Origin: an uncultured Eubacteriales bacterium
Lineage (GTDB): Bacteria > Actinomycetota > Coriobacteriia > Anaerosomatales > CAYWAF01
Length of the DNA stretch: 39,556 nt
Direction: 5' to 3'
Assembly: GCA_964456355.1 (NCBI GenBank)
Contig: CAYWAF010000002.1
Coordinates: forward strand, 13,975-53,530
Shown here: one piece after another, positions 1,000 to 35,683 of the stretch
Layout of the letters: each line of letters begins with the position of its first letter
Position numbering within the stretch: position 1 is the stretch's first letter
Program-made: the position numbers and the translations under genes
Notes under the pieces: model-generated
Database searches by the model: none
Seen by the model: the letters and a program-made list of their open reading frames with translations, nothing else
Told to the model about the DNA's origin: nothing

Positions 1000-1000
1000 G

Positions 1001-2715
<1,715 letters not shown>

Positions 2716-2719
<4 letters not shown>

Positions 2720-3552: not shown

Positions 3553-3572
3553 ACGAGAAGGAGGTAGTGAGC

Positions 3573-4919: not shown

Positions 4920-4933
4920 GGGGGAGGCTTGCT

Positions 4934-4964
4934 GTAGGGTCCGCCCTTCCCGGGCGGACCCTAC
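4934..4964 (+). other. Perfect 13-bp GC-rich stem-loop between trpB2 and trpF
   Basis: The sequence is GTAGGGTCCGCCC-ttccc-GGGCGGACCCTAC. It starts 15 nt after the trpB2 stop and ends 13 nt before the trpF ATG. No U-tract follows. Confidence 0.6.
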
Positions 4965-4977
4965 GCGAGGTGACAGG

Positions 4978-18531: not shown

Positions 18532-19944
18532 ATGTCAGACGAACCGGTCAAAGATGATGTCGTCACGGGTGACGAACACCTGGACAACGTCGCCGCCAAC
18601 CTCCAACTCGTCGCCGACCTCGGCTACGGCGACGTGGCTCTTGCCGTGCCGGACGACACCGGCATGCTGCGCGTCGCAGCCGAGGCCCGTCCAATGACTG
18701 CCATAGCTGCCGCAGCGGCCTCCCGGCTGGGCGTCATGCTGCGTCATGAGGACGAGCCGGAGGCGTATAAGGCGCTTGCCACCGGACGTTCCTACGTGCG
18801 CGAAGCCGGGAAGACCACGCGTGGGATATCGTTCACCACGTTCGCCTATCCTGTCGTCACCGGCGAAGGAGGCGCTGTCATCGCGGTGGTCGTCCGCAAC
18901 GTCGCTCAGCAGGTGCTGGAGGCGCCCGGTGCCATGGAGACGGCCTCCATGGAACTGGCCGAGGAGGTCCTCGACGTGCTCAGCAGGCAGCCGCTGAGGG
19001 AGACAGGGACGGGCAAGGGATTCTCGACGACTCGCAAGGCAGGGGACGGCCTTCTCCGAGTCTCGGGTGAGATGGTCGCTTACGCGAGCCCGAACGCGCT
19101 CAACATCATGCGGTTGGCGGGTGTGGGCGTCCCTTTGCCGCGCAACGCGGCCATGCTGCCTGGGGCGAAGGCCGCGGTCCTGCCGGTGGTCAAGAGGTCA
19201 GGTGCGGCATCGGCCACCGAGATCGAGACGGGCGAGCGGGTCTTGGGCTACCGTTCGATAGGAGTGGCCGACGGTGCTCTCGTGCTGGTCGAGGACCGCA
19301 CCGAGGCACGTCGGCGCGAGCAGGAGATAAAGGTCAAGGAGGCGACGATACGTGAGGTCCATCATCGCGTGAAGAACAACCTGCAGACGATCGCCAGCCT
19401 CTTGCGCATCCAAGGGAGGCGCATGGAGAGCGAGGAGGCCAGGGAGGCGCTCTTCGAGGCGACCGAGCGGGTCTCGTCCATGGCGGTAGTGCACGAACTC
19501 CTCGCTGGCTCGTCCGAGGCGAGCATCGACTTCGCGCAGGCGGCCTCCACCGTGGTCGACATGGTCTGCAAGGGTCTTTCCGGCGAGAGCAGCTGTATCG
19601 ATGTCAAGGTCTCCGGCTCCACCGGTCAGGTCCCGGCGAAGGCTGCCACCTCGCTCGCGCTCGTCCTCACTGAGCTCGTCCACAACGCCATCGAGCATGG
19701 CTTGGCTGGCACCGGTGGAGGACTCGTCTCCGTCGAGATGCGCAGGCTTCCCGACGAGCTGGTGCTCACGGTCCGCGATGACGGACCCGGGTTTCCGGAG
19801 GATTTCGACCCGGACTCCTCTCCCAATCTGGGTCTGGCCATCGTGCGCACTATGGTCGAAGACGATCTTCGCGGTACCCTTTCGTTCGGTAAAGGTCCCG
19901 GTACGACAGTGACGGTGCGTTTCCCGCTCCCGAAGGAGGGCTGA
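18532..19944 (+). CDS. pdtaS: Soluble PdtaS-type sensor histidine kinase (HisKA_2/HWE-like)
   Basis: There are no TM segments. An N-terminal sensor region of ~270 aa precedes the H-box EVHHRVKNNLQ. HATPase motifs are LVHNAIEHG, DDGPGFP and GLGLAIV. An ANTAR regulator follows immediately. Confidence 0.8.
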   Translation: MSDEPVKDDVVTGDEHLDNVAANLQLVADLGYGDVALAVPDDTGMLRVAAEARPMTAIAAAAASRLGVMLRHEDEPEAYKALATGRSYVREAGKTTRGISFTTFAYPVVTGEGGAVIAVVVRNVAQQVLEAPGAMETASMELAEEVLDVLSRQPLRETGTGKGFSTTRKAGDGLLRVSGEMVAYASPNALNIMRLAGVGVPLPRNAAMLPGAKAAVLPVVKRSGAASATEIETGERVLGYRSIGVADGALVLVEDRTEARRREQEIKVKEATIREVHHRVKNNLQTIASLLRIQGRRMESEEAREALFEATERVSSMAVVHELLAGSSEASIDFAQAASTVVDMVCKGLSGESSCIDVKVSGSTGQVPAKAATSLALVLTELVHNAIEHGLAGTGGGLVSVEMRRLPDELVLTVRDDGPGFPEDFDPDSSPNLGLAIVRTMVEDDLRGTLSFGKGPGTTVTVRFPLPKEG

Positions 19945-19951
19945 GAGTATC

Positions 19952-20536
19952 GTGCGTGTGGTCATCGCAGAGGACGAGGCGCTCATACGGATGGACCTCC
20001 GAGAGATGTTGGAAGAGGAAGGTCACGAGGTGGTCGGCGAAGCACGCGACGGCGCAGAGGCGGTCGAGCTGGTGCGTTCGCAGAGGCCCGACATCGTGTT
20101 CATGGACATAGAGATGCCCGTGATGGACGGGCTCGAGGCCGCGAGGATCATCGGGGAGGAGGGCATCGCTCCGGTGGTGATGGTCACGGCCTTCTCTCAG
20201 GTCTCCTATGTCGAGGAGGCCGCGCAGGCAGGCGCCATGGGTTATCTGGTCAAGCCCTTCACGGTGCGCGATGTCGTTCCCGCCATGCACATAGCGACCT
20301 CCCGTTTCACCGAGGCCAGGACCCTCGCTGACGAGGTGGCGGACCTCAACGAGCGCCTGGAGACCCGCAAGGTGCTCGACAAGGCGAAAGGACTCCTCAT
20401 GGCGAAGGGGATGAGTGAACCGGAAGCGTTCAAGAAGTTACAGCGTCTGGCCATGGACAAGCGCAAGACGCTGCGTGAGGTCGCAGAAGCGGTGCTGCTC
20501 GCCTCGGAGGCCCACGATGGCAAAGGCGACGGTTAG
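19952..20536 (+). CDS. pdtaR: Receiver-ANTAR response regulator (PdtaR-like RNA-binding antiterminator)
   Basis: The receiver has VVIAEDE, IVFMDIEMPVMDG, VVMVTA and GYLVKP. The C-terminal ANTAR helix pattern is LETRKVLDKAKGLLMAKGMSEPEAFKKLQRLAMDKRKTLREVAEAVL. Confidence 0.85.
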   Translation: MRVVIAEDEALIRMDLREMLEEEGHEVVGEARDGAEAVELVRSQRPDIVFMDIEMPVMDGLEAARIIGEEGIAPVVMVTAFSQVSYVEEAAQAGAMGYLVKPFTVRDVVPAMHIATSRFTEARTLADEVADLNERLETRKVLDKAKGLLMAKGMSEPEAFKKLQRLAMDKRKTLREVAEAVLLASEAHDGKGDG

Positions 20537-22218: not shown

Positions 22219-22246
22219 TTGTGAATCGATGCGCACCTGATATAAT
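22219..22246 (+). promoter_or_regulatory. Sigma70/SigA-like promoter with extended -10 (TTGTGA-16 nt-TATAAT; TGaTATAAT)
   Basis: The -35-like TTGTGA is at 22219-22224 and TG-a-TATAAT at 22238-22246. This stands out in a GC-rich genome. It predicts a ~125-nt leader before the ATG at 22378. Confidence 0.5.
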
Positions 22247-22377
22247 GCTTCACGCGCTCCACGATGATGTGGGGCGGACATAGATGACGAGCAACGACGC
22301 TCGCTCGGTCCGTCTGGGCCTTGCGGGCGTTTTCATATGTACCGGTCGCCTGTCAGGACGAGGGAAGGGCTATAAAG

Positions 22378-23745
22378 ATGAAGGAGTTCGCGGTCTTCTG
22401 GGGATGCACGATCCCTGCCCGCTTCCCGTTCATAGAGAAGTCGCTCAGGGTCCTCTTCGACGAGCTCGGTGCCACCATCCACGAGTTGGAGGGGCACACA
22501 TGCTGTCCGGAGGGCACCCTCGTCAAAGCCAACGATCCCGACTCCTTCTTCACGACCGCCGCACGCAACCTGGCGATCGTCGAGAAGGCGGGGCTGGACC
22601 TGGTGACGCCGTGCAACGGCTGTTATTCGACGTTCAAAGAGGCTCAAAGCCATCTGAAGACCCACTGGCGCGAGCGCGAGAAGATAAACGAACGTCTGGC
22701 TCCCGAGGGGCTCGAGTACCGGGGTGACCTGAGGGTAGTGCACTTCGCCGAATGGCTCGCGGACCATATGGGCACGGGCATGGTGACCGCGAAGGCCAAG
22801 AAGCACCTGTGGGGCATGAACATCGCCGTGCATTACGGCTGTCATCTCCTGCGTCCTCAACCTGCCATCACGTGGGACGACCCGCTCAACCCCACCAAGG
22901 TCGAGGGGATAGTCGCGGCCCTCGGCGCCAACGTCGTCGACTATCCGTCCAAGATGCAGTGTTGTGGCGGTTACCTGGACCGTGTGGGCGAGCGTGACGG
23001 CTCCCTCGCCTTCAACCGCAGGAAGCTCTACGACCTGGAGCGTCACGGTGCGGACGCCCTCATCGTGGTATGCCCTTCCTGCTTCCAGCAGTTCGATCTC
23101 AACCAGGCCGCATTGCAGCGCGCCAACGAGCAGATACACATACCCGTCCTCTACCTCTCCGAACTTTTGGACCTGACCTACGGACACGATCCGGAGGAGC
23201 TGGGCCTGAGCATGCACAGGGTCGACGTCTCCCCGTTCTTGGAGAAGTGGGCGAGTCGTCATGAGGACAAGGCACGGCTCGAGGAGGACTTCGACGTCTC
23301 GCTCCTGGCCAAGTGCTACAGCTGTCAGGCATGCAAGGACGATTGCCCGGTCTGCAAGATCGACCCGACATTCCAGCCGCTCGAGATAATCGGCCGGCTT
23401 CTGAGGGGCGAGATCGACGACGTGCTCGACGACCCCAACATCTGGAAATGCCTCGAGTGCTACACGTGCTTGGAACTGTGCCATTCGGAGATAGGCATGG
23501 CCGAGACGTTCCGCAAGCTCAAGGAGCTCTCCTTGGAGAAAGGGACCAACCCTGAGCAGATACCTGCCAGTTACGAGACGTTTCTGGAGACAGGACTTCT
23601 GGGCAAGCCGAGGGAGAGCGCACGCAAGAAGTTGGGCCTCGGGCCTCTGCCCGAGACCGGTGGAGACGTGATCAAACGGATCATGGGCGGCGAGGAAGCA
23701 TCCGCTGCTGATGATGCGGAGGAAGAAGGAGAGGAAGAGCGATGA
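22378..23745 (+). CDS. HdrB-like (2x CCG cysteine-rich domain) fused to HdrC-like 2x[4Fe-4S] ferredoxin domain
   Basis: ATG 22378 follows GAGGGAAGGG. The first CCG unit is WGC...CCPEG...PCNGC and the second is YGC...CCGG...CPSC. The C-terminus has CYSCQACKDDCP and CLECYTCLELCH, followed by an acidic tail. Confidence 0.8.
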   Translation: MKEFAVFWGCTIPARFPFIEKSLRVLFDELGATIHELEGHTCCPEGTLVKANDPDSFFTTAARNLAIVEKAGLDLVTPCNGCYSTFKEAQSHLKTHWREREKINERLAPEGLEYRGDLRVVHFAEWLADHMGTGMVTAKAKKHLWGMNIAVHYGCHLLRPQPAITWDDPLNPTKVEGIVAALGANVVDYPSKMQCCGGYLDRVGERDGSLAFNRRKLYDLERHGADALIVVCPSCFQQFDLNQAALQRANEQIHIPVLYLSELLDLTYGHDPEELGLSMHRVDVSPFLEKWASRHEDKARLEEDFDVSLLAKCYSCQACKDDCPVCKIDPTFQPLEIIGRLLRGEIDDVLDDPNIWKCLECYTCLELCHSEIGMAETFRKLKELSLEKGTNPEQIPASYETFLETGLLGKPRESARKKLGLGPLPETGGDVIKRIMGGEEASAADDAEEEGEEER

Positions 23746-25016
23746 GTCACGAACCGCTTATGGAGCGGGGGACGACGACGAAGATGCCCTCCCTCACCGA
23801 CCGTGAGGGAGTCTTCGGTCTGGAGCGTCCGCACTATGCAGAAGAGGCCTCCTTCAAGATACATGGCGGATGCGGACTGGTGGGCATCTGCGACGAGTCC
23901 GGCTCGATGATGAGCGGGGAGATAGCCATCCGCTCGATGGCGGTCCAGCGGGACCGCGGCAACGGTCTGGGCGCAGGCTACGCGGGATACGGGATATACC
24001 CGGAGTTCCCGGACCACTTCTGTTTCCACATGATGTACCACGACATCAAGGCGAAAGAGGACACAGAAGCGATCTTCGACCAGTACTTCGTCGTCGACCT
24101 GGCCGAGCCGATGCCCACGCGCCCGGCCCGCGGGATAAGCGACGCCCCGTTACTGTGGCGCTACTTCGTCACTCCCGACCCTCATAAGATCGAAGGGACG
24201 GAGATGTCGGCCGACGACTTCGTCGTCCACACCGTCATGCTCATAAACTCCAGCGTCGACGGTGCTTTCGTGGCCTCTAGCGGAAAGAACATGGGCGCGT
24301 TCAAGGGCGTCGGCTTCCCCGAGGAGATAGGCCACTACTACCTGCTCGAGGAGTACGAGGGTCACACGTGGGTCGGCCATAACCGCTTTCCGACGAACAC
24401 CCCCGGCTGGTGGGGCGGCGCCCACCCGTTCACGTTGCTCGACTGGTCGATCGTGCACAACGGCGAGATCTCCAGTTACGGCATCAACAGCCGCTATCTC
24501 GAGCAGTACGGCTACAAATGCGCACTCGGCACCGATACCGAGGTAGCAGCATATCTGTTCGATCTGATGTTACGTCGCCACAAGTTGCCGCTCGAGTTGG
24601 CCTGCAAGGTGCTCGCGAGTCCTCTGTGGTCGGAGATAGACCGCATGCCCGAAGAGGAACAGGTGCTCATGCGCTCGCTACGTGCCGTCTACGGCCCAGG
24701 GATGTTGAACGGTCCGTTCGCCATCGTGCTTGGCTTCAACGGCGGGATGGTCGCCCTCAACGACCGCATCAAGTTGCGGCCGCTCGTGGCCGCCCGGCAG
24801 GACTCGATAGTCGCGGTCGCCTCGGAGGAGAGTGCGCTCCGGGAGGTGTTGGACTCGCCCGATGCGGTATGGATGCCGAAGGCCGGCGAGCCCGTCATCG
24901 CGCGGGTGAGGGGTATGGAGTGGCCCATCCACGGCGACCTTCACCTTTCCGCTTCAGAGGTCTCCTGTGCCGTCACCGGCTCGGAAGACTCGTGCGAGAC
25001 CATGGAGGTGGGCTAG
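23742..25016 (+). CDS. Class II (Ntn) glutamine amidotransferase, glutamate synthase domain-1 type
   Basis: The start overlaps the upstream stop as ATGA. The catalytic-Cys context is HGG-CGLVGI at residue 44. Also present are HNRFPTNT and VHNGEI, typical of GltB/PurF-type GATases. Confidence 0.82.
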   Translation: MSHEPLMERGTTTKMPSLTDREGVFGLERPHYAEEASFKIHGGCGLVGICDESGSMMSGEIAIRSMAVQRDRGNGLGAGYAGYGIYPEFPDHFCFHMMYHDIKAKEDTEAIFDQYFVVDLAEPMPTRPARGISDAPLLWRYFVTPDPHKIEGTEMSADDFVVHTVMLINSSVDGAFVASSGKNMGAFKGVGFPEEIGHYYLLEEYEGHTWVGHNRFPTNTPGWWGGAHPFTLLDWSIVHNGEISSYGINSRYLEQYGYKCALGTDTEVAAYLFDLMLRRHKLPLELACKVLASPLWSEIDRMPEEEQVLMRSLRAVYGPGMLNGPFAIVLGFNGGMVALNDRIKLRPLVAARQDSIVAVASEESALREVLDSPDAVWMPKAGEPVIARVRGMEWPIHGDLHLSASEVSCAVTGSEDSCETMEVG

Positions 25017-25019
25017 CAG

Positions 25020-26531
25020 ATGCCGATCAGCCTGATCCAGCCTGAGTTCAAGGTCCACATCGACTACGACAAGTGTCACAAGTGCGGCCGTTGCGTGCAG
25101 CAGTGTGGCTGGGGGGTCTACTCGTTCAACGAGCGGCCCATCCCCGACGACTCGAAGTGTCGCGCATGTCACCGCTGCGTGACGTACTGTCCGGCCCACT
25201 GCATCACCATCAAGAAGAACGACCTGGCATACCGCTCGAACGAGCACTGGTATCCCGGGCTGCGCAAGGCAGTCTGGCGTCAGGCCGAGACCGGTGGCGT
25301 GATGCTCACCGGCATGGGCAACGACATGCCGTTCCTCAACATCTTCGACCATCTCGTCCTGGATGCTTGCCAGGTCACCAACCCTTCCATCGACCCTCTC
25401 CGTGAGCCGATGGAGCTGCGCACCTATCTGGGCCGTAAGCCGGACTCGGTCGAGGTCGAGGTCGACGAGAACGGCGGCTACCGCCTGAAAGGCGAGGACG
25501 CGGTAGCCCGCAACATACAGCTGGAGGCCCCCATCATCTTCTCGCCGATGAGTTACGGCTCGGTCTCGCTGAACGTGCACAAGTCGCTTGCGATGGCCGC
25601 CCAGCGTTGCGGCATCCTCATGAACACGGGCGAGGGTGGACTGCACGCCGACCTCTACCCCTACCAGGACAACGTGATAGTCCAGGTGGCTTCGGGCCGC
25701 TTCGGGGTCAACCCCGAGTACCTCAACCGTGGTGCTGCGATGGAGATCAAGATAGGGCAGGGCGCCAAGCCGGGCATCGGCGGGCACCTGCCGGGCGAGA
25801 AGATAAACCGCGAGGTCTCCGAGACGCGGATGATACCGCAGGGCTCCGACGCCATATCGCCCGCTCCTCACCACGACATCTACTCCATCGAGGACCTGCG
25901 CCAACTCATCTACTCGCTGAAGGAGGCGACCGGCTACAAGCCGGTGGGTGTCAAGATAGCGGCGGTCCACAACGTCGCTGCCATAGCCAGCGGCATCGTG
26001 CGCGCCGGGGCCGACTACGTGTACCTGGACGGTTTCCGGGGAGGCACGGGCGCTGCGCCGCAGATCATCCGCAACCACATCGGCATACCCATCGAGATAG
26101 CCGTGGCCGTCGTCGACCAGCGCCTGCGTGATGAAGGCATCCGCAACCAGGCATCCATCGTGGCAGCCGGTTCGATCCGCTCCTCGGCCGACCTGGCCAA
26201 GGTGATCGCTTTGGGCGCCGACGTCGCCGCCATCGGTTCGACCGCGCTCATGGCGCTCGGTTGCCATCTGTGTCAGGGATGCCATACAGGGCTGTGCTCC
26301 TGGGGCATCACCACGCAGAAGCCTGAACTCACGCGCCGGATAGACCCGGAGTGGGGCGCCGAGCGTCTGAGCAACCTCATCCATGCGTGGAGTCACGAAC
26401 TCCAGGAGATACTGGGTGCCCTCGGCGTGAACGCGGTGGAGTCCCTCAGAGGGAGCCGCGAGCGTCTGCGTGCTGTGGGCCTCGACGAGCAGACCTGCGA
26501 GATCCTGGGCGTCAAGCCCGCTGGCCGCTAG
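25020..26531 (+). CDS. Glutamate synthase FMN/Fe-S domain with N-terminal 2x[4Fe-4S] ferredoxin insert (archaeal type)
   Basis: The ferredoxin motifs are CHKCGRCVQQC and CRACHRCVTYCP. GltS FMN-domain motifs are NTGEGG, KIGQGAKPGIGGHLPG and DGFRGGTGAAP, plus the Cys cluster LGCHLCQGCHTGLC. Confidence 0.85.
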   Translation: MPISLIQPEFKVHIDYDKCHKCGRCVQQCGWGVYSFNERPIPDDSKCRACHRCVTYCPAHCITIKKNDLAYRSNEHWYPGLRKAVWRQAETGGVMLTGMGNDMPFLNIFDHLVLDACQVTNPSIDPLREPMELRTYLGRKPDSVEVEVDENGGYRLKGEDAVARNIQLEAPIIFSPMSYGSVSLNVHKSLAMAAQRCGILMNTGEGGLHADLYPYQDNVIVQVASGRFGVNPEYLNRGAAMEIKIGQGAKPGIGGHLPGEKINREVSETRMIPQGSDAISPAPHHDIYSIEDLRQLIYSLKEATGYKPVGVKIAAVHNVAAIASGIVRAGADYVYLDGFRGGTGAAPQIIRNHIGIPIEIAVAVVDQRLRDEGIRNQASIVAAGSIRSSADLAKVIALGADVAAIGSTALMALGCHLCQGCHTGLCSWGITTQKPELTRRIDPEWGAERLSNLIHAWSHELQEILGALGVNAVESLRGSRERLRAVGLDEQTCEILGVKPAGR

Positions 26532-26545
26532 TTAGGAGATGCGTG

Positions 26546-27370
26546 ATGACTCAAGCGACTGAGAAGCGCACCGGACCCATCGAGGGTTACCGGATGGTCG
26601 AGCCGAAGGTCACCGTCGAGGGTGACGTGTTCACCATCGATGCGCGCAACATCTACTACAAGCAGATGAACGAAGCGGTGCGCCGGGCCATAGCCGATGG
26701 CGCGAAGACCATAAGACTCATGGGTGTGAACGGTCAGCGTTACATAGGCACCGGCCTCAAAGGCCCCGATGTCCGCATCGAGGTGCACGGGACCGCCGGC
26801 AACGACATGGCCATGTTCATGGACGGACCCACCCTGGAGGTCTTCGGCAACGCCCAGGACGGCGTCGGCAACACCATGAACGCAGGCAAGGTGTTCGTGC
26901 ACGGGGATGCAGGCGACGTGCTGGGTTACGGGATGCGTGGCGGTCGCGTCTTCATCAAAGGCGACGTCGGCTACAGGGTGGGCATCCACATGAAGGCCTA
27001 CGAGAGCCTCGTCCCGGTCATGGTGTGCGGCGGGAAGTCACGCGACTTCTTCGGCGAGTACATGGCAGGCGGCATGCTCGTGCTGCTGGGCATGGACTCT
27101 CAGATGAAGGGGCCCATCGTGGGCGGCTATGTCGGCACGGGCATGCATGGAGGCGTGATCTACCTGCGCGGTGAGCTCGAGCCGTGGCAGGTGGGCAAGG
27201 AGTGCGGCATCTTCACCGCCGACGAGGACGACCTCGTAGAGCTCAAGCCCGTGCTGGAGGAGTACTGTGAGGCTTTCGAGGCCGACCTCGACGAGGTCCT
27301 CTCCGTCCCGTTCACCAAACTGGTGCCGATAAGCCATCGCCCCTACGGGAAGCTGTACACGTACCTGTAG
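26546..27370 (+). CDS. GXGXG-motif domain protein (GltB C-terminal domain / FwdC-like)
   Basis: ATG 26546 lies 7 nt after AGGAG. Repeated beta-helix G-x-G motifs are present: HGTAGNDMAMFMDG, VFGNAQDGVGNTMNAG, VHGDAGDVLGYGMRGG, IKGDVGYRVG. Confidence 0.82.
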   Translation: MTQATEKRTGPIEGYRMVEPKVTVEGDVFTIDARNIYYKQMNEAVRRAIADGAKTIRLMGVNGQRYIGTGLKGPDVRIEVHGTAGNDMAMFMDGPTLEVFGNAQDGVGNTMNAGKVFVHGDAGDVLGYGMRGGRVFIKGDVGYRVGIHMKAYESLVPVMVCGGKSRDFFGEYMAGGMLVLLGMDSQMKGPIVGGYVGTGMHGGVIYLRGELEPWQVGKECGIFTADEDDLVELKPVLEEYCEAFEADLDEVLSVPFTKLVPISHRPYGKLYTYL

Positions 27371-27425: not shown

Positions 27426-28568
27426 GTGATCGGCTACGTGGTGGGGATAGGCAAGACACGTTTCGGTCCCTCCAGCCATGCCCTCCCGTATCTCGCTCAG
27501 GAGGCGATGGTCGATGCCCTGGAGGACGCAGGGCTTTCGCCGCATGACCTCGGCGCCTTCATCGTGGCCAACTTCCTCGGCGGGCCGAACGAGCATCAAC
27601 TCCATCTGAACTCCGTGGTCGCCAGTCTCATGCCAGGGGTGCATGTCCCCGGCTGGCGGGTCGAAGCGGCCTGCGCCGCCGGAGGCGTGGCCGTGCACCA
27701 GGCGCTCGCGCTGCTCGACACCTACGACCCCATACTCGTCATCGGGGTGGAGCGGTTGAGTGGTCTACCCGGTGCCGAGTTGACCCGCAACATCGGGATG
27801 GCCGGCGATGTCCTTCTGGACCAGGCCTTCGGGCTCAATTTCCCTGCGAGTTATGCGCTCGTGGCTCAGAGGCACATGCAGGAGCACGGGACGACCACGC
27901 GTGACTTCGAACTCATCAGCCTGAAGAACCATGCCAACGCCCGACTCAACCCCAAGGCCCACTTCCATCGAAAACAGGTCACCCAGTCCGACATCGATGC
28001 CGGTCCCACGGTGGCTGCTCCGCTGCGCCTGTTCGATTGCTGTCCCGTCTCGGACGGTGCCGCGGCGGCGGTGGTCTCCAGAAAACCCGTCGGTCCCAGG
28101 AGCGTGCCGGTCCTCGGCAGCGCTGTGAGGACCGACGTCATCTCGCTCGCACAACGTAAGACCCACACGAGCTTCCTGGCTGCGAAGAAGGCTGCTCATA
28201 CGGCCTACGCCCAGGCCGGCATCAGCGCAGGAGACACGGGTTTCGCCGAGGTCCACGATTGCTTCACGATAGCGGAGATAGTGGCCATGGAGGACCTGGG
28301 GCTCGCCGAGCCCGGACATGCGGTGGACCTCATACGCGAAGGCGAGACAGGCATCGAGGGCAGGATCCCGATAAACCCGAGCGGCGGCCTGAAAGCGGGT
28401 GGCCACGCCATCGGAGCCACGGGCGTGGGTCAGGTCTACGAGGCCGTCATGCAGATCCGCGGAGAGGCGGCCGAGCGTCAGGTGCAGGATGTGCGTTACG
28501 GGGTCACCCACAACGTCGGAGGCGTCGGCGGGACATGCGCCGTCCATGTCCTTGGAGGTCCGCGATGA
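27426..28568 (+). CDS. Thiolase-fold protein of the archaeal/SCP-x type (acetyl-CoA acetyltransferase-like)
   Basis: The N-terminus is GYVVGIGKTRFG. The nucleophile context is VEAACAAGG, and NPSGGLKAGGHAIGATG is present. It is 380 aa and is followed by a DUF35-containing gene with an ATGA overlap. Confidence 0.85.
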   Translation: MIGYVVGIGKTRFGPSSHALPYLAQEAMVDALEDAGLSPHDLGAFIVANFLGGPNEHQLHLNSVVASLMPGVHVPGWRVEAACAAGGVAVHQALALLDTYDPILVIGVERLSGLPGAELTRNIGMAGDVLLDQAFGLNFPASYALVAQRHMQEHGTTTRDFELISLKNHANARLNPKAHFHRKQVTQSDIDAGPTVAAPLRLFDCCPVSDGAAAAVVSRKPVGPRSVPVLGSAVRTDVISLAQRKTHTSFLAAKKAAHTAYAQAGISAGDTGFAEVHDCFTIAEIVAMEDLGLAEPGHAVDLIREGETGIEGRIPINPSGGLKAGGHAIGATGVGQVYEAVMQIRGEAAERQVQDVRYGVTHNVGGVGGTCAVHVLGGPR

Positions 28569-29686
28569 GTGCGTACGAGTGCACCTCATGCGGGACCGTC
28601 TACGCTCACGAGTTGGCATCGTGCACGTTCTGCGGCGCCGCTCTCTCCGAGCTCGAACCACAGGACGGGCGGGTGCTCGCCGTCACCGAGGTGACCACCC
28701 CTTCGGTGGGCCACGAGGACGTGCCGTACTGGTGTGCGCTCACCGAGGTCGGCGATGGCCGATACTCCATAGTCAAGCTCGACAGGGCGGTCGAGGTGGG
28801 CGAGACGATACCGGCTCGCGGCATCACTGCCGAGGCCCGTTACGCGGTAGGCGTGCTCGGATCGGGGGCCATGGGACGCGGGCTGACGGAACTGCTCCTC
28901 TTCCAGGGTCACGAGGTCGTCTGGGTGAGCCGTTCTCTCGAGCGTCTGGAGAGAGGGAGGGCGAAGGTGGCCGACCGCCTGGCGCGCGTGATGGACGAAA
29001 CCGAGGTCGCAGAGGCGCTTTCGAGACTCACCATCGCAGACACATACTCCGCTCTCGAGCCATGCGACATAGTGATAGAGGCGATAGTCGAGGAGATAGA
29101 GCCCAAGAAGCGTGTCCTCGCAGAGGTGGAGGCGGTCGTCTCCGAGGACACCCTGATAGCCACCAACACGTCGTCTCTGCCGCTCGATGAGATGTCGGCG
29201 CAGATGCAGCACCCCGAGCGCTTCGGTGGCCTGCACTTCTTCAACCCGCCCACACGCATGCGTCTCGTCGAGGCCGTCCGTGGTCCGATGACCACGGAGG
29301 AGACCTCACGGATCATGAACGAGTTCGCCCGACGTCTGGGCAAGGTCCCCGTGCCGGTCGAAGCAGGCCCGGGCTTCGTCGTCAACCGGGTGCTCATGCC
29401 CCTTCTGAACGAGGCCGTACGTACTCTGGAAGAGGGTATAGCGCCCGCCGAAGACATCGACGAGGCTGTCCGTCTGGGACTCAACCATCCGATGGGACCG
29501 CTGGCCCTGGCCGACCTCATCGGCCTGGATGTCGTGGTGAGGATAATGGACGATCTCCACACGCGCCTCGGCGATGAAGCATATGCGCCCAGGCCGATGC
29601 TCAGAAGGTTGGTCGAGGAGGGCAAGTTGGGGCGCAAGACCGGCGAGGGCTTCTACGTCTACACCCCTCCACCCGTGTCGGGGTGA
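28565..29686 (+). CDS. Fusion: DUF35-type zinc-ribbon/OB-fold domain + NAD-dependent 3-hydroxyacyl-CoA (3-hydroxybutyryl-CoA) dehydrogenase
   Basis: The first ~95 aa carry CTSC..(n)..CTFCG followed by an OB-like segment. Next come the Rossmann motif VGVLGSGAMGRG and the HBD motifs IATNTSSL, HFFNPP, PGFVVNR and GRKTGEGFY. The track ORF start at 28259 lies off-frame inside the thiolase gene and was rejected. Confidence 0.8.
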   Translation: MSAYECTSCGTVYAHELASCTFCGAALSELEPQDGRVLAVTEVTTPSVGHEDVPYWCALTEVGDGRYSIVKLDRAVEVGETIPARGITAEARYAVGVLGSGAMGRGLTELLLFQGHEVVWVSRSLERLERGRAKVADRLARVMDETEVAEALSRLTIADTYSALEPCDIVIEAIVEEIEPKKRVLAEVEAVVSEDTLIATNTSSLPLDEMSAQMQHPERFGGLHFFNPPTRMRLVEAVRGPMTTEETSRIMNEFARRLGKVPVPVEAGPGFVVNRVLMPLLNEAVRTLEEGIAPAEDIDEAVRLGLNHPMGPLALADLIGLDVVVRIMDDLHTRLGDEAYAPRPMLRRLVEEGKLGRKTGEGFYVYTPPPVSG

Positions 29687-29688
29687 CC

Positions 29689-30843
29689 TCAGAGCTTGAC
29701 GTAGATCTTCCGCCTGTCCAGCCATGCTGCGACCACGAACCACATGGCGACCTCCGCGCCTGACACCAGAAGCGAAGCGGCGACGTTCCCGAGGTAAGGC
29801 GCCAGGGCGACTCCGGCCCCGGGGAAGAAACGCATCTGCGTCCCCGGGATGACGAGGTGCCTGGCCACCACGACCAAGGCACTCGAGCCGACGTATATCA
29901 ACAGCGCGTTACGCCCCATGGGCACCAACCATCGCAGATAGCGGTCATGCCCTTCGAGGTCCGCGACGTAGTACATGGCGGCCAGGATGACGGTGCATAC
30001 GCCGGACGTCACCATCACGAACGTCGGGGTCCAGAGTTCTTTGTTTATCGGCAGAGAGAGAAGCGATGCGGTCACCCATCCACATGCGGCCAGAGCGGCG
30101 CCCATCAATGCCAGTCGTCCCACTTGCTTCGCGCCCTTCGGGAATCGTATCAGCCACATCCCCGTGGCAAGGCCCAAGAGCGCTTGCGCTCCTGCCGAGA
30201 GCGTTCCCAAGACGCCCTCGGGATCGAATCCGAGGTGACGATAGGTGTGCCCCATCCCTAGGACGAGTGTGTCTATGTAGCCGGAGATGTTCGCCTCCAT
30301 GCTGCTGAGGTCTCCCGGGACCACCCCCGGCGCACCGACCCCGAGCAGGACCACACCGTGCAAGACGAGCAGCACCGCGGCCCCGACGAGCACCCAGCGG
30401 ATCCTCGAACGCGTGAAAGGCCACGCGATGAGCAGCGAGAGCGCTATGCGCTGCAGAACGCCCAGATACCTCAATGGGAGGCCGTACTTTATCAGGTTGA
30501 GCCCCAGCCCTATCGCGAACAGGACGGCGACGCGTCTCAGGAAGACGAGGGTAGCCGCTTTGAAGTCGAGGTCCTTCTTGCGGCTGACCGAGTATGCGAG
30601 GGAGACCCCTGCTATCCAGATGAAGGCGGGGAAGACGAAGTCCGGCAGCCTCAAACCATGCCACTCCGGATGCACCAGGAAAGCCGGGAGCGAGGCGATG
30701 ATCGTCGGGTGGTCCATGAATATCATCAGGGCCACGGTGATCGCTCGGGCTGCGTCCAGGGAGACGACGCGTTTTTTCTTCACTTGGCTCTGGCCCGCAG
30801 GTCCATCTTCCCTGGGTCCGACAGGTCTTTCCTCAGCCGACAT
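29689..30843 (-). CDS. Multi-TM acyltransferase-like protein, HGSNAT/DUF1624-DUF5009 family (heparan-alpha-glucosaminide N-acetyltransferase-like)
   Basis: The N-terminal RVVSLDAARAITVALMIFMDH matches the family's R..SLD..RG...M...H start as I remember it. About 10 TM segments follow. Its stop codon is 2 nt from the convergent HBD stop. Confidence 0.55.
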   Translation of the reverse strand: MSAEERPVGPREDGPAGQSQVKKKRVVSLDAARAITVALMIFMDHPTIIASLPAFLVHPEWHGLRLPDFVFPAFIWIAGVSLAYSVSRKKDLDFKAATLVFLRRVAVLFAIGLGLNLIKYGLPLRYLGVLQRIALSLLIAWPFTRSRIRWVLVGAAVLLVLHGVVLLGVGAPGVVPGDLSSMEANISGYIDTLVLGMGHTYRHLGFDPEGVLGTLSAGAQALLGLATGMWLIRFPKGAKQVGRLALMGAALAACGWVTASLLSLPINKELWTPTFVMVTSGVCTVILAAMYYVADLEGHDRYLRWLVPMGRNALLIYVGSSALVVVARHLVIPGTQMRFFPGAGVALAPYLGNVAASLLVSGAEVAMWFVVAAWLDRRKIYVKL

Positions 30844-30940: not shown

Positions 30941-31756
30941 TTGGGGCGCTGGAAGAAGGTACTCATCGTCGTCTTCGCCGTCATCGGAGTATCGATGGCG
31001 GTGGTTGTCTTCTGGCGTTGGCCGAGGGCCGTGCCCATACTCGATGCAGACACCGTCCTGGTGATAAGCCCCCATCCCGATGACGAGACGTATGCGATGG
31101 CTGAGGCGATAGCCGAGCAGGTGATGGCAGGGAAGCAGGTCATAGGAGTCCTGGTGACCGACGGAGAGAAGAGCGACCGTGTGGAGGAGTGGACCGTCGA
31201 GGAGGGGACCGACCTCGATGATGACGGTGATGTCGACAGGTGGGACTTCGGCCTTGCCAGGCGTGCCGAGTACAAGAAGGCCATGACCGCCCTAGGGGTC
31301 AGGCGCATGGTCTTCCTAGGTCGGGCCGATACTCAGGGCAGGGCAGGGTTCCGTGATGGCTCGGTGGATGCAGGCGATGTCGAGAAGGCTTTGTCAGAGA
31401 TCGCCGAGCGCTATCCCGAGGTCGGTTACATGACGGTCATGCGCTACCTTCCCGAGCACAGGCTCGTCGGTGATGCCAGGCTCCACGAGGACCACACGGC
31501 CGTGTGCGAGGCAACCAAGTCCTTGGCGCAGGCGCGCGGCGAGACGGCGTACTTCTACAAAGTCTACGTCCTCTATCACTCCGAGTGGTGGAAGCGCTGG
31601 GCGCCACGGTTCGTCCGGGGCAGCGACGAGGCTTTCGAGCGCAAGCAGGCCGCTGTGGACGCATACTCCGAGATGGGGGCGGCAAGCACTCCCGATCTCT
31701 GGGAATCGGCTCGCGAGAGCCGCGTGGAGTACCTGGTTCCTTCGGATTGGTTCTGA
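30941..31756 (+). CDS. PIG-L/LmbE-family N-acetylglucosaminyl deacetylase with N-terminal membrane anchor
   Basis: TTG start lies 7 nt after GAGGGGA. One N-terminal TM helix precedes the PIG-L signature VISPHPDDETYAM. The later HEDH is a possible metal ligand. Confidence 0.8.
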   Translation: MGRWKKVLIVVFAVIGVSMAVVVFWRWPRAVPILDADTVLVISPHPDDETYAMAEAIAEQVMAGKQVIGVLVTDGEKSDRVEEWTVEEGTDLDDDGDVDRWDFGLARRAEYKKAMTALGVRRMVFLGRADTQGRAGFRDGSVDAGDVEKALSEIAERYPEVGYMTVMRYLPEHRLVGDARLHEDHTAVCEATKSLAQARGETAYFYKVYVLYHSEWWKRWAPRFVRGSDEAFERKQAAVDAYSEMGAASTPDLWESARESRVEYLVPSDWF

Positions 31757-31794: not shown

Positions 31795-33960
31795 CTAACT
31801 TTTGGACCGTATCCTTCCTTCGACGATGAGACCGGCGAAGATCCTTGCAAGTTCGGGGTCGAACTGGGTGCCCGCGCACTGCAGGATCTCTTCAGCAGCC
31901 TCGTTGTCGTTGCAGCTCTTACGGTACGGGCGGTCGGAGGTCATGGCGTCGAAGGCGTCGCATATGCACAGCATGCGTGCTTCGTAAGGTATCTCCTCGC
32001 CACGCAACCCGTTGGGATAGCCGGCTCCGTCCCATCGCTCATGATGGGCAAGCACCCACGGCAGTATCTCATCGCGCACGCTCGCGCGGAGTATCTGCAC
32101 GCCTAACGCCGGGTGGTTCATTATCCGCTTGAACTCGTCGGGCTCGAGAGCGGTGGGCTTGGTGAGTATCGCATCCGGCACGCCGATCTTGCCGATGTCG
32201 TGCAGAAGCCCGGCGGCGACGAGCAGCGGCAGCTTCTCCTCGGGGTAATCGACGGTCTTCGCGAACACCTCTACATGCTCTGAGACGTTGCGGGAATGAC
32301 TTTCCGTATAGGGGTCTCTCGCGTCGACTGCAGCTGCCAAGGACTCGATCAGCTTGGTGTGAGAGATCTCTTCCACCTTCAGCCGGTGCTCCGCGGAGTC
32401 CAGGGCCTCCACCGTCTGAGGATCGAAGATGATGATGGAGTTCCCGCCCGAGACCTTGGCCCAGTACGAGGCACCCTCAGCGAAGCGTATGAGGTCGTTT
32501 ATGTCCGATGTGTGCATCGGTATCGATGCGATACCGATCGAGAGATGGAGTGGCTCGTCGGTGCCGTCGTTGGGGCCCTCTGCCCTTCGGACCACTCTCA
32601 GACAGTCCTGGTACGCCTGCACGGCATCGGTGACGGGAAGGATCACGGCGATGTCATCGCCTCCTATGCGGAAGACCGTGTCATAATCGCGGACGTTGGC
32701 CTTGATCATCCTGGCGAGCCAGCGTATGCGGTTGTCTCCGGCAGAGTAGCCGTATCGGAGGTTGAACGCCTCGAAATCGTCGATGTCTATCACGCAAAGA
32801 CTCAAAGCATCGCCGTCATGGAGGGCGTGCTTGACCTCACGCGCGAGTCTTTCCCGGAAGTACCGGTAGTTGAAAAGACCGGTCAGCGGGTCCAGATACG
32901 ATTCCTCCGACAACCTGCGGTTCTCCAAGGTGATGACCGCGCTGCGAGCCACGACGAGCATCGCGACCGCTGCAGCGGAGAAGGAGACTATCGTCTGCGT
33001 CAGTGGATCTGATGCGTACGTGGCCATGTAGATGAGGGCCGGCAGACCCAGGATGCCGATCATCAACGAGGCGATGCCGGGCCAGTGGGGGAGGTCGAGT
33101 TCGGGGGTGGGCTCCCGGTAGACCGATTGGGGCTCGGTCAGTCGCGTGAGTCCGGCGAGCGCCAGCAACGAGGCGGTGATGACCCACAGGGAGTCCACTG
33201 CACCCGTATATGGCTCGCCCGCCTCATAGAATCCCCATACCGCTCCCACGGTGCTTCCCAGTATCCCGAAGGCCGAGACGGTGAGAGCTGCGAGTATGAG
33301 GAGCACGTGAGGATGCCATCGGCTACGCCGGAACGCCAGGAGATAGATGACCACCGCGAAGCTGACCACGGGATACAGGATCAGCGCGACCCTTCCCATC
33401 ACCGAGGTGTCACTCTCCAAAGCGTTCAACGGTGCGAGGATGAAGAGGTATGCAAGAGCCAGCATGAGCATGAACATCGTGGCGAAGTCGATCATGTTGC
33501 GCAGTTTTCTCAGGCCGACCACCTGGAACGGTTCGGTCATCAGCAGGACCACGGGGATGAACATCAGAAAGCCGATGGTGAACATGTAGTCCTCGAACGA
33601 GCCGGGTGGAGGGTAGTCCCCGAAGGCGAACACGTGATAGGCGCGATAGGCCATCCCTGCGAAGAAGAACGACATCCCTACGGCGATCAGCAGCCACGTG
33701 CGCCGTTCCTTGCCTCTGGTGCTCGATGCAGTGAAGAAGTTGGAGAGGATCGCTGTGCCTATGGGGACGAGGAACATGAGCGCGGAGATCTTCGCGCGCG
33801 TCTCCGTGGGCCAAGGGGCGAGTTGAACGGCCAGGAACAGGCCGAGGAACGTTGCAGCAGAGAACCAGGCCGGGCTCCGCAACGTCGTGACCTTCTTGCG
33901 AAGGTCACCCCACCCTTTTTCTGCGAGCAGCCCGTCCCCTCTGTCGACGGCTTCATGCAC
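31795..33960 (-). CDS. Multi-TM sensor protein with degenerate GGDEF domain and intact HD-GYP phosphodiesterase domain
   Basis: About 9-10 N-terminal TM segments are present. The GGDEF fold has LDPLTGLFNYRYF with the signature changed to GGDDI, preceded by RDYD at the I-site spacing. HD-GYP motifs are HDIGKIGVPD and HHERWDGAGYPNGL. Confidence 0.85.
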   Translation of the reverse strand: MHEAVDRGDGLLAEKGWGDLRKKVTTLRSPAWFSAATFLGLFLAVQLAPWPTETRAKISALMFLVPIGTAILSNFFTASSTRGKERRTWLLIAVGMSFFFAGMAYRAYHVFAFGDYPPPGSFEDYMFTIGFLMFIPVVLLMTEPFQVVGLRKLRNMIDFATMFMLMLALAYLFILAPLNALESDTSVMGRVALILYPVVSFAVVIYLLAFRRSRWHPHVLLILAALTVSAFGILGSTVGAVWGFYEAGEPYTGAVDSLWVITASLLALAGLTRLTEPQSVYREPTPELDLPHWPGIASLMIGILGLPALIYMATYASDPLTQTIVSFSAAAVAMLVVARSAVITLENRRLSEESYLDPLTGLFNYRYFRERLAREVKHALHDGDALSLCVIDIDDFEAFNLRYGYSAGDNRIRWLARMIKANVRDYDTVFRIGGDDIAVILPVTDAVQAYQDCLRVVRRAEGPNDGTDEPLHLSIGIASIPMHTSDINDLIRFAEGASYWAKVSGGNSIIIFDPQTVEALDSAEHRLKVEEISHTKLIESLAAAVDARDPYTESHSRNVSEHVEVFAKTVDYPEEKLPLLVAAGLLHDIGKIGVPDAILTKPTALEPDEFKRIMNHPALGVQILRASVRDEILPWVLAHHERWDGAGYPNGLRGEEIPYEARMLCICDAFDAMTSDRPYRKSCNDNEAAEEILQCAGTQFDPELARIFAGLIVEGRIRSKS

Positions 33961-35605: not shown

Positions 35606-35644
35606 CAACGATGCCGGGCGGGGGCACCTCGCCCGGCATCGTTG
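35606..35644 (+). terminator. Strong 15-bp perfect stem-loop after glnA
   Basis: The sequence is CAACGATGCCGGGCG-ggggcacct-CGCCCGGCATCGTTG, followed by CATT. A 7-bp hairpin, ATAGGTC/GACCTAT (35579-35599), precedes it. Confidence 0.6.
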
Positions 35645-35670
35645 CATTCCGGTAGTTCGGGCCGGAGCGC

Positions 35671-35676
35671 TAGAAT
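35671..35676 (+). promoter_or_regulatory. -10-like TAGAAT 7 nt before the regulator ATG (leaderless configuration)
   Basis: The context is gcTAGAATcaggcacATG, and no Shine-Dalgarno is present. Confidence 0.4.
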
Positions 35677-35683
35677 CAGGCAC

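Follow-up and report, generated by a model that had tools for sequence, protein, structure and literature searches.

What delivers electrons to a glutamate synthase (GOGAT) when no GltD partner is encoded beside it? The question is raised by a locus of an uncultured Eubacteriales bacterium (placed by GTDB in the Anaerosomatales of the Coriobacteriia), which lies in a stretch of 39,556 nt (GenBank CAYWAF010000002.1, positions 13,975 to 53,530; assembly GCA_964456355.1) with a GC content of ~62%. This whole stretch is here called the window and all positions are counted from its first letter unless a related locus is named. Four tightly packed genes on its plus strand (22378-27370; Table 1) encode, in order, a fusion of HdrB-like and HdrC-like modules of heterodisulfide reductase (open reading frame 1, ORF1), an N-terminal nucleophile (Ntn) glutamine amidotransferase (ORF2), the flavin mononucleotide (FMN)-binding synthase subunit GltS (ORF3) and a GXGXG subunit (ORF4). 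An earlier note, made from the sequence alone, had proposed that the fusion serves this synthase as its redox partner. Our analysis makes it highly probable that the HdrB→HdrC fusion is a dedicated fourth subunit of a widespread split GOGAT complex. The evidence for this, the candidate electron donors and the readings that compete with it are set out below.

Operon layout and linkage of the fusion to split gltS genes

The four ORFs were found at the coordinates given in the earlier note, and the domains it had assigned to them (CCG, Fer4, GATase_2, Glu_synthase and GXGXG) were borne out by profile searches with Pfam and NCBIfam. The junctions, read directly from the sequence, likewise match: ORF1 and ORF2 overlap in an ATGA (23742-23745), the TAG of ORF2 is followed by the 3-nt spacer cag and the ATG of ORF3, and the TAG of ORF3 by the 14-nt spacer ttaggagatgcgtg, which includes a GGAG, and the ATG of ORF4. 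The three GltS genes are separate, adjacent and on one strand, and thus have the gene arrangement of the split 'archaeal' glutamate synthase. As the earlier note had claimed, no GltD-type protein (Pyr_redox_2/Fer4_20) is encoded by any of the ~44 window ORFs scanned with Pfam.

Of 166 non-redundant loci, 158 have a split-gltS gene on the same strand and no more than 6.5 kb away from the fusion. In each of the remaining eight the contig stops no more than 172 nt after the fusion gene, so that all testable loci (158/158) are linked; the conserved linkage on which the earlier note had staked its proposal therefore held wherever a contig allowed it to be seen. The order HdrBC>GATase>GltS>GXGXG is found in 103 of 108 complete cassettes and two further orders exist. 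With three gene orders in all, the linkage has survived rearrangement. The fusion gene sits in operon position, often with overlapping stop and start codons. A correlation of identities between the subunits was not used as evidence, as it largely mirrors the distance of Coriobacteriia from all other lineages.

When each GTDB species was represented by one genome, the scan recovered 80 loci at 68-78% identity, nearly all of them from metagenome-assembled genomes (MAGs) of Coriobacteriia or other Actinomycetota, with the HdrBC-GATase-GltS-GXGXG order constant wherever the contig extends far enough. Another 80 metagenome loci, with 43-57% identity to a Bacillota member, show the same linkage, and a search of 50%-identity cluster representatives added ~30 clusters, with full-length B→C fusions that show 31-50% identity. 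Going by the names given by the sequence sources, which are used for all relatives here, these related fusion proteins come from Bacillota/Clostridia/Eubacteriales, Deltaproteobacteria (Candidatus (Ca.) Acidulodesulfobacterium), Nitrospirota, Planctomycetota, Ca. Schekmanbacteria, Ca. Methanoperedens, Ca. Argoarchaeum and Lokiarchaeia. The cassette itself was found in MAGs named Coriobacteriia, Bacillota/Clostridia, Deltaproteobacteria/Acidulodesulfobacterium, Nitrospirota, Planctomycetota, Ca. Methanoperedens and Lokiarchaeia, and in nine of nine gene tables of distant relatives. On the Lokiarchaeia contig an Arf/Ras-type GTPase adjoins the cassette, and one further archaeal contig with the cassette carries Cdc6, Pcc1 and prefoldin.

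Unbiased clustering of flanking ORFs, in which antisense shadow ORFs from greedy longest-ORF calling in GC-rich loci (clusters 4, 6 and 10) were ignored, yielded only amt, P-II and glnA as recurrent families outside Coriobacteriia; no GltD-like, thioredoxin-like or ferredoxin gene was recurrent in it. Likewise, gene tables and homology searches of 170+ related loci, with flanks of up to 10 kb, contained no GltD-like gene. The glutamine synthetase gene glnA lies directly 3' of the operon in many relatives. In the window it follows 6.9 kb after the operon, together with a GlnR-like regulator, where the earlier note had placed both, and a GlnR-like gene comes after glnA in the related locus L002 too. 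The recurrence of glnA, amt, P-II and GlnR as neighbours supports the view that the operon is the GOGAT partner of glutamine synthetase. The glnA ORF of the window opens at a GTG, with its likely start at an ATG behind GAGGAGG; the 445-aa product from this ATG matches relatives of 448 aa, and the 34 codons before it are thus probably untranslated.

Two cassettes have further genes in or beside them. In the Planctomycetota cassette a HEAT-repeat protein is encoded between the GltS and GXGXG genes (L172, 10999-12087). The Nitrospirota cassette has a gene for a 220-aa polyferredoxin-like protein of the AF_0155 family 46 nt upstream of the Hdr-like gene (L173, 1829-2491), and a sigma-54 activator and amt downstream.

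The HdrB→HdrC fusion protein

Pfam recognizes two CCG domains in ORF1 (PF02754, E=1e-30) and then Fer4_8. The HdrB model TIGR03288 of NCBIfam aligns end to end with residues 3-290 and the HdrC model TIGR03290 with residues 311-428; these positions agree with the earlier statement that the HdrB-like part precedes the HdrC-like part, the reverse of the HdrD and GlcF types. Indeed, the CCG proteins GlcF, GlpC, HdrD, TfrB, LutA and SdhE either have the order Fer4→CCG or consist of CCG only, in contrast to the CCG→Fer4 order of ORF1. A conserved RKKLGL motif stands at the C-terminal end, after the HdrC-like part.

All 18 cluster cysteines that characterize HdrB and HdrC are present: Cys10, 42, 43, 79 and 82 and Cys155, 195, 196, 232 and 235 in the two CCG units, and Cys313, 316, 319 and 323 and Cys358, 361, 364 and 368 in the ferredoxin part, which has an additional C326. 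Across 39 sequences down to 30% identity, 16 of the 18 are invariant and two are present in at least 90% (for the CCG cysteines alone, eight and two of the ten), and in 16 diverse representatives all 18 are invariant. The CCG and ferredoxin motifs are thus as the earlier note had them, although the 'CCPEG' it had singled out is no peculiarity, genuine HdrB also reading CCP at this point.

Over its first 290 residues the protein shares ~40% identity with HdrB of known structure (E=5e-66), and over residues 304-428 it matches HdrC in solved structures. An AlphaFold2 model of ORF1 (mean predicted local distance difference test score 92.3; predicted template modelling score 0.84) has HdrB 8rvy_B as its top Foldseek match, with a TM-score on the target of 0.93, a root-mean-square deviation of 1.8 A and 41% identity; HdrC chains are matched as well (TM-score on the target ~0.56), and LutA 9a6l and EtfD 9ojn follow far behind HdrB. 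In NCBIfam all scores lie below the cut-offs, at 256 bits against 345 for TIGR03288, 124 against 450 for NF041780 and 57 against 160 for TIGR03290. The other CCG families score 147 against 500 (SdhE), 74 against 385 (TfrB) and 19 against 333 (GlcF), and the weak matches also include LdhH and GlpC. By both sequence and structure the protein is closest to HdrB and not an ordinary GlcF, LutA or SdhE subunit. Members of the family are annotated as 'heterodisulfide reductase subunit B', 'heterodisulfide reductase-related iron-sulfur binding cluster', '4Fe-4S dicluster domain-containing protein' or 'hypothetical protein'. In six metagenome loci (e.g. L156, 2652-4097) the HdrC-like half is a separate ORF right after the HdrB-like half, so that B again precedes C, through either a true gene split or a frameshift.

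In HdrB of M. thermolithotrophicus, coenzyme B (CoB) is held by Arg14, Arg201 and Arg240 (PMC13261682). The equivalent of Arg14 is kept in ORF1 as R15 and that of Arg201 as R202, the latter conserved in Coriobacteriia only and variable over the family, whereas the CoB phosphate ligand Arg240 is replaced by Leu241. No HdrA-like gene is present in any annotated cassette locus. A bona fide CoB-CoM (coenzyme M) heterodisulfide reductase was rejected on the strength of the sub-cut-off scores, the B→C fusion, the missing HdrA neighbour and the loss of Arg240.

Subunits of the split glutamate synthase

ORF2 matches GATase_2, GATase_6 and GATase_7 of Pfam, all above their cut-offs, with just 33 bits for GATase_2, and its matches in the PDB reach only E ~1e-3: this is a very divergent amidotransferase subunit. 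The candidate nucleophile is Cys44 in a conserved GGCGL motif, encoded by the codon at 23871-23873 that the earlier note had pointed to. Residues 1-43 are presumed to be a propeptide that would be removed by autoprocessing as in PurF and GltB. This idea, also put forward in the earlier note, fits the family, as 11-50 aa precede the cysteine in most members, with a Met-Cys start in a few, and as in Coriobacteriia the N-terminal extension is itself conserved in sequence, with the shared context RPxYxEEAxFKIHGG|CGL (the bar marking the predicted cleavage site).

ORF3 matches the Glu_synthase model PF01645 with 448 bits over profile positions 7-369 of 369 and can be aligned with the synthase domains of GltS proteins of known structure. 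Its N-terminal 2x[4Fe-4S] domain, described as an insert in the earlier note, indeed has both CxxCxxCxxxC motifs (residues 19-29 and 47-57; 25074-25106 and 25158-25190), and the pair recurs in 83 of the 85 FMN subunits of the family that are long enough to score. At the site of the classical [3Fe-4S] cluster beside the FMN, ORF3 has a C-x2-C-x2-C-x4-C motif (residues 414-429; 26259-26306). The three classical [3Fe-4S] cysteines (C-x5-C-x4-C) are present in it, as seen from the alignment with B. subtilis GltA, and each of the 84 sequences whose motif could be located has a fourth; the FMN-adjacent cluster may therefore be a [4Fe-4S]. ORF4 was confirmed as the GXGXG subunit (PF01493, 111 bits). 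For the four proteins together we predict, from the cysteine motifs, a cofactor set of seven iron-sulfur (Fe-S) clusters and FMN. None of them has a predicted membrane segment, which points to a soluble complex.

Electron input and its alternatives

With no GltD in the neighbourhood, the fusion most likely supplies the electron input. Of the possibilities raised in the earlier note, coupling to quinones was rejected as unlikely, given that none of the four subunits has a hydrophobic segment. The option of a thiol/disulfide link fared better. In thiol:fumarate reductase a CCG module passes electrons from thiols into a flavoenzyme, and TfrB is among the NCBIfam families matched by ORF1. Most informative are four independent Bacillota loci in which a dihydrolipoyl dehydrogenase gene (Lpd; 538 bits against the TIGR01350 cut-off of 409) is embedded in the operon (Table 1). 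Three of the four also encode a small free lipoyl protein (76-77 aa in L089 and L174, 85 aa in L176; 67-75% identical, with a conserved TSKA lysine) and three of the four LipA. LipA and, where it occurs, LipB score above their NCBIfam equivalog cut-offs. These genes support, for these Bacillota, a chain from NAD(P)H via Lpd to a dihydrolipoyl protein, the fusion and GltS. A dithiol that donates through the fusion is accordingly a real prospect in the family at large, if one we put a little short of even.

Several considerations weigh against a dithiol. Genes for lipoyl protein, Lpd, LipA and LipB are absent from the window and from every non-Bacillota locus, and since they are confined to Bacillota a lipoyl donor cannot be claimed for the present organism: the thiol link suggested in the earlier note thus draws support from four Bacillota operons and from no gene of this window. 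No thioredoxin-like or other thiol partner recurs among the flanking ORFs of related loci, and to our knowledge the taxa with the cassette share no common low-molecular-weight thiol. The replacement of Arg240 by Leu241 and the lack of family-wide conservation of Arg201 imply that the substrate is not CoM-S-S-CoB, and leave the pocket unreadable from sequence. Among the proteins matched by ORF1 are some CCG proteins with no known thiol chemistry, namely LutA 9a6l and EtfD 9ojn in Foldseek and SdhE and GlpC in NCBIfam. The GltS subunit has a ferredoxin-like domain of its own that could accept electrons from ferredoxin directly, and ferredoxin-linked neighbours occur, in the form of an aldehyde oxidoreductase in the window and the polyferredoxin gene upstream in the Nitrospirota locus. 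Finally, a gltD elsewhere in the genome may exist, the search for GltD having covered the window ORFs and the locus flanks.

The tungsten-type aldehyde:ferredoxin oxidoreductase (AFOR_N and AFOR_C) is encoded at 14643-16433. It indicates an anaerobe with ferredoxin-linked metabolism and so bears on the choice of donor. Cultured relatives have thioredoxin reductase and, as part of their glycine cleavage system, also a lipoyl protein (PMC9686372), and lipoate-binding proteins are obligate partners of Hdr-like sulfur-oxidizing complexes (PMC6067878).

The main rival donor is reduced ferredoxin, entering via the ferredoxin domain of GltS or via the fusion as a wire. According to this serious alternative the enzyme would be a ferredoxin-dependent GOGAT and the fusion, while still dedicated to it, would be only an Fe-S wire, a scaffold or a ferredoxin dock with no thiol chemistry at its CCG motifs. 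Besides the ferredoxin-linked enzymes and the CCG proteins just named, it can draw on the fact that over 160+ loci a thiol partner gene recurs in one Bacillota subclade only. However, HdrB would be superfluous in a plain wire, and its fold is kept whole together with all ten CCG cysteines; and the presence of Lpd in four operons, mostly with a free lipoyl protein and in two gene orders, is hard to reconcile with it. We regard this reading as rather unlikely, albeit well ahead of those that follow.

It is improbable that the donor partner is encoded elsewhere, as a GltD, an NfnB/SudA-like protein or some other reductase, and that the fusion is an accessory, e.g. for redox sensing or switching through a thiol/disulfide signal. 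GltD homologues are widespread partners of many enzymes (PMC5736913), which together with the scope of the GltD search leaves such a partner some room. Nevertheless, none turned up in the scanned window ORFs or in the related loci and their flanks, the operon position of the fusion gene and its frequently overlapping codons suggest a structural subunit, and HdrC-type clusters are just the electron path to be expected into the ferredoxin domain of GltS.

Slightly less probable again is an enzyme other than a biosynthetic GOGAT, which might use a disulfide to oxidize glutamate or some other amino acid, or carry out an amidotransfer like that of N-methylglutamate synthase. Enzymes of the MgsABC/GlxBCD type also use a three-gene GltS-like architecture, Hdr normally reduces disulfides, and the divergence of the amidotransferase would suit a changed reaction. 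Against this, the FMN subunit matches PF01645 from end to end and aligns with the synthase domains of solved GltS, the neighbours are glnA, amt, P-II and GlnR with no methylamine or catabolic genes, and seven Fe-S cluster sites fit a reductive enzyme.

That an ordinary GlcF, LutA, SdhE or HdrD-type subunit stands beside the gltS genes by chance, as the weak matches to SdhE, LdhH, GlcF and GlpC might have hinted, is refuted by the neighbourhood survey with its complete linkage, and runs counter to the CCG→Fer4 order (opposite to that of GlcF, GlpC, HdrD and TfrB) and to HdrB and HdrC being the best matches in sequence and structure.

An ANTAR-type leader upstream of the operon

The 125 nt directly before ORF1 form a leader with two hexaloop hairpins followed by an intrinsic terminator (Table 1). 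The 3' arm of hairpin 2 is at the same time the 5' arm of the terminator, the two having 22296-22303 in common; the inner stem of the terminator (22311-22329) is followed by TTTTC, and a linker of 11 nt separates the hairpins. The published definition of a target of ANTAR antiterminator proteins is two hexaloop stem-loops with A at position 1 and G at position 4 of the loop, the second of which competes with an intrinsic terminator (PMC3369931, PMC8164766). The leader agrees with this definition, which allows linkers of 2-25 nt. Hairpin 1 of the window has the G at position 4 but a G at position 1, where most relatives have A.

This structure is conserved across Coriobacteriia. Among 81 distinct leaders, hairpin 2 is present in all 81, hairpin 1 in 77 and a terminator of the GCGGGCGTTTT type in 75, with the A..G.. 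pattern in loop 2 of 78 and in loop 1 of 56. Pairing is kept in 97% of the cells of an alignment of 55 leaders, and of the six pairs in hairpin 1 five have changed in a compensatory way. A covariance model has a single significant match in the window (22248-22310, 47 bits), no other target being found there or upstream of glnA. Related loci, 1.43 Mb in total, contain 76 copies, all of which fall in the leader of an Hdr-GltS operon. Rfam at gathering thresholds reports only a tRNA-Leu for the whole window, and a search of the leader by E-value only a chance S-adenosylhomocysteine-riboswitch match (E=5); with no Rfam match, the leader is not a catalogued family.

A sigma-70-type promoter candidate, TTGTGA and TATAAT at a distance of 16 nt with a TG before the -10 element, ends 8 nt 5' of the first hairpin. 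Such sites number one in 9 kb against a chance expectation of 1.5, and it is the position directly before the conserved leader RNA that supports this one. The single strong promoter of the earlier note thus corresponds to a site that is there but in a count not above chance.

A PdtaS-type sensor kinase and a PdtaR-like ANTAR response regulator are encoded 1.8 kb upstream of the operon, as they are upstream in most Coriobacteriia relatives. From its domain and position, this regulator is the probable antiterminator protein of the leader. The two genes between it and the operon are not conserved there; one encodes a membrane protein of 199 aa that matches nothing in Pfam, the other a CAAX-protease-like protein. 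In the Clostridia locus L176 (1020-6341) two ANTAR response regulators, glnA and a gene for a 525-aa protein with only the Glu_synthase domain precede the Hdr-GltS cluster, so that ANTAR control may extend beyond Coriobacteriia.

In the dual hexaloops, the overlap with the terminator, the ANTAR regulator nearby and the target in nitrogen metabolism, the locus is comparable to the ANTAR-controlled operons eut (EutV), nas (NasR) and ami (AmiR) and to the mycobacterial PdtaS-PdtaR system (PMC3369931, PMC8164766). It differs from them in the G that opens hexaloop 1 in the window, in the lack of an Rfam match, and in that an Hdr-GltS target and environmental Coriobacteriia are not mentioned in these two papers.

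Proposed mechanism

On balance, we lean towards the proposal that the four genes specify one soluble, four-subunit GOGAT that is fed through the HdrBC fusion, linked to a dithiol and, in Coriobacteriia, gated by ANTAR. The amidotransferase subunit would be autoprocessed to expose Cys44 and would free ammonia from glutamine; the FMN and GXGXG subunits would join it to 2-oxoglutarate and reduce the resulting imine. The two electrons for this step would be delivered by the fusion, in the place taken by GltD in bacteria and, as has been proposed, by an FrhB-like subunit in methanogens. They are predicted to run from the two [4Fe-4S] clusters of the HdrC type to the two N-terminal [4Fe-4S] clusters of GltS, then to its four-cysteine cluster and to FMN, and the HdrB-type clusters would then work oxidatively, on thiols, rather than in disulfide reduction. 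In the Bacillota subclade the role of the dithiol would probably fall to the dedicated lipoyl protein, which dihydrolipoyl dehydrogenase would re-reduce with NAD(P)H. In Coriobacteriia expression would be gated by the ANTAR-type antiterminator, probably via the upstream PdtaS/PdtaR-like system. The locus would thereby belong to the nitrogen-assimilation set formed by glutamine synthetase and GOGAT.

A bolder and more tentative extension, to which we give slightly less credence than to the dithiol donor as such, holds these operons to be an undescribed class of dithiol-driven glutamate synthases. In some Clostridia the donor would be a dedicated lipoyl carrier that NAD(P)H recharges through Lpd; in other lineages a different dithiol would serve, and candidates are GcvH-type lipoyl proteins for Coriobacteriia and CoM-SH/CoB-SH for Methanoperedens.

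Comparison with known systems

The literature, including genome papers on the host clades, contains no description that we could find of a glutamate synthase linked to Hdr, CCG proteins or lipoate, which agrees with the earlier note. Reviews mention just the existence of separate GltS-domain ORFs in Archaea (PMC8097209). The note's further claim, that split GltS has no defined donor, is correct as regards established donors but overlooked published, unproven proposals of an F420-dependent, FrhB-like type (PMC3087415, PMC3448663). This putative F420-dependent GltS of methanogens and anaerobic methanotrophic archaea (ANME), in which an FrhB/FdhB-like 'subunit 4' was proposed from gene context and 'remains to be proven' (PMC3087415, PMC3448663, PMC9012536), is the closest described analogue. 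Both it (FGltS I/II; 'subunit 4' MTH193) and the present operon combine a split GltS with an extra Fe-S subunit that would define the donor, and both are known from genome context. The extra subunit is an FrhB/FdhB-like F420H2 dehydrogenase there, whereas here it is the HdrB→HdrC fusion with its non-cubane CCG motifs, and the Hdr-linked type is widespread in Bacteria as well as Archaea.

With NADPH-GOGAT (GltB/GltD) and ferredoxin-GOGAT the operon shares the Ntn amidotransferase with its cysteine after a presumed propeptide, the FMN synthase and GXGXG domains, an Fe-S cluster beside the FMN, and the partnership with glutamine synthetase. Unlike in these, the domains are separate proteins and there is no GltD in the window. 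Further, no separate central domain was detected, the PF04898 match falling inside the synthase region of ORF3; the FMN subunit has the extra 2x[4Fe-4S] domain; and a four-cysteine motif replaces the three cysteines of the [3Fe-4S] cluster.

The HdrABC complex (PDB 5ODC, 8RVU) is comparable in the HdrB fold, both five-cysteine CCG motifs, the two-cluster ferredoxin fold of HdrC and the ~40% identity in HdrB. It is unlike the present system in lacking the B→C fusion, in its HdrA and MvhD, neither of which is a neighbour here, and in keeping Arg240 where ORF1, with its sub-cut-off scores, has Leu241. Moreover, many of the hosts here are non-methanogenic bacteria and the proposed direction is thiol oxidation. 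In TfrAB of Methanothermobacter, whose donors are CoM-SH and CoB-SH, a module of CCG and ferredoxin domains likewise takes electrons from thiols and hands them to a flavoenzyme for the reduction of a carbon substrate, and by analogy it would be the mechanistic precedent for a 'thiol:GOGAT'. Unlike the fusion, TfrB has the order [2Fe-2S]/Fer4→CCG, and its partner is the fumarate reductase flavoprotein.

The sHdr-LbpA systems, where Hdr-like CCG proteins are encoded with a lipoate-binding protein and lipoate-assembly genes (PMC6067878, PMC10332631), recall the Bacillota operons. They are distinguished from the present family by HdrA, sulfur transferase and DsrE/TusA genes, none of which is found here, where the partner enzyme is GltS. 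The lipoyl protein of the Bacillota operons has an E2-type domain, the assembly genes with it are the classical LipA and LipB, and the window has no lipoate genes.

Other genes in the window and coordinates of the features

A thiolase-like gene and then a 3-hydroxyacyl-CoA dehydrogenase gene (27426-29686) start 55 nt after the stop of the GXGXG gene, with no terminator detected between. The dehydrogenase ORF has a long N-terminal extension with a zinc-ribbon-like CxxC...CxxC stretch. A thiolase at this position is absent from all related loci, the dehydrogenase not having been searched for there. Further on, between the operon and glnA, lie genes for an HGSNAT-like membrane acyltransferase (29689-30843, minus strand), a PIG-L family deacetylase (30941-31756) and a 721-aa protein with GGDEF and HD-GYP-type (HD_5) domains (31795-33960, minus strand). 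The window begins with a tryptophan operon (4-7665) of trpE, a trpG-D fusion, trpC, a PALP/TrpB-like gene, trpF, a second TrpB-like gene and trpA, i.e. with two TrpB paralogues, followed by a glutamine-dependent NAD synthetase (7745-9352).

Table 1. Operon, leader and regulatory features of the window, and Bacillota operons that include dihydrolipoyl dehydrogenase (coordinates of the latter are those of the respective locus)
Feature	Position	Strand	Size or composition	Basis
HdrB→HdrC fusion, ORF1	22378-23745	+	455 aa	Pfam, NCBIfam, structure model
HdrC-like part of ORF1	23290-23697 (aa ~305-440)	+	two CxxCxxCxxxC motifs, 23314-23346 and 23449-23481	
Ntn (class II) glutamine amidotransferase, ORF2	23742-25016	+	424 aa	Pfam, NCBIfam
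GltS FMN/synthase subunit, ORF3	25020-26531	+	503 aa	Pfam, NCBIfam
GXGXG (beta-helix) subunit, ORF4	26546-27370	+	274 aa	Pfam, NCBIfam
Sigma-70-type promoter candidate	22219-22246	+	TTGTGA-16 nt-TATAAT, TG before -10	motif scan
Operon leader	22253-22377	+	125 nt; two hexaloop hairpins, then intrinsic terminator	
Leader hairpin 1	22255-22276	+	8-bp stem, hexaloop GAUGAU	
Leader hairpin 2, antiterminator	22288-22303	+	CGAGC-AACGAC-GCUCG, hexaloop A1 and G4	
Intrinsic terminator in leader	22296-22334	+	9+5 bp stem, then UUUU	minimum-free-energy fold
PdtaS-type sensor histidine kinase	18532-19944	+	GAF_PdtaS, HisKA_2, HATPase_c	
ANTAR response regulator, PdtaR-like	19952-20536	+		Pfam
Glutamine synthetase, glnA	34241-35578	+	ORF opens at GTG 34139, likely start ATG 34241	Pfam
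GlnR-like OmpR-family regulator	35642-36349	+	Trans_reg_C and GlnR_1st	
Bacillota operon, L089	4536-7970		GATase-GltS-GXGXG-Lpd-LipB-LipA-lipoyl protein-HdrBC	
Bacillota operon, L174/L175	L174 5685-8904		GATase-GltS-GXGXG-Lpd-LipB-LipA-lipoyl protein-HdrBC	
Bacillota operon, L092	7134-9387		GXGXG-Lpd-LipA-HdrBC; overlapping stop and start codons; LipA the sole other lipoate gene	
Bacillota operon, L176	7306-8998		GXGXG-Lpd-lipoyl protein-HdrBC-GATase-GltS; without LipA and LipB	

General significance

The HdrB→HdrC-linked operon is a variant of a known enzyme, glutamate synthase, and not a new type of enzyme. The donors proposed so far for the split 'archaeal-type' GltS rest on genome context, and the HdrBC fusion adds to them a concrete candidate for the electron input. 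The Bacillota operons in turn suggest a chain that can be assayed, from NAD(P)H via Lpd and the lipoyl protein to the HdrBC-like fusion and GltS. The leader offers a clean, clade-wide example of antitermination control of a GOGAT.

If the role of the fusion is confirmed, HdrB-type non-cubane chemistry would extend from methanogenesis and sulfur oxidation to central nitrogen assimilation, and glutamate synthesis would be coupled to the thiol redox state. It would also correct the annotation 'CoB-CoM heterodisulfide reductase subunit B' on many MAG proteins, a label that can lead the metabolic reconstruction of Coriobacteriia, Asgard archaea and ANME astray. Should the more tentative notion of a dithiol-driven class prove true, many subsurface anaerobes, ANME-2d and Lokiarchaeia among them, would have such an enzyme as their main GOGAT, and both lipoate and the CCG fold would have a new biosynthetic role.

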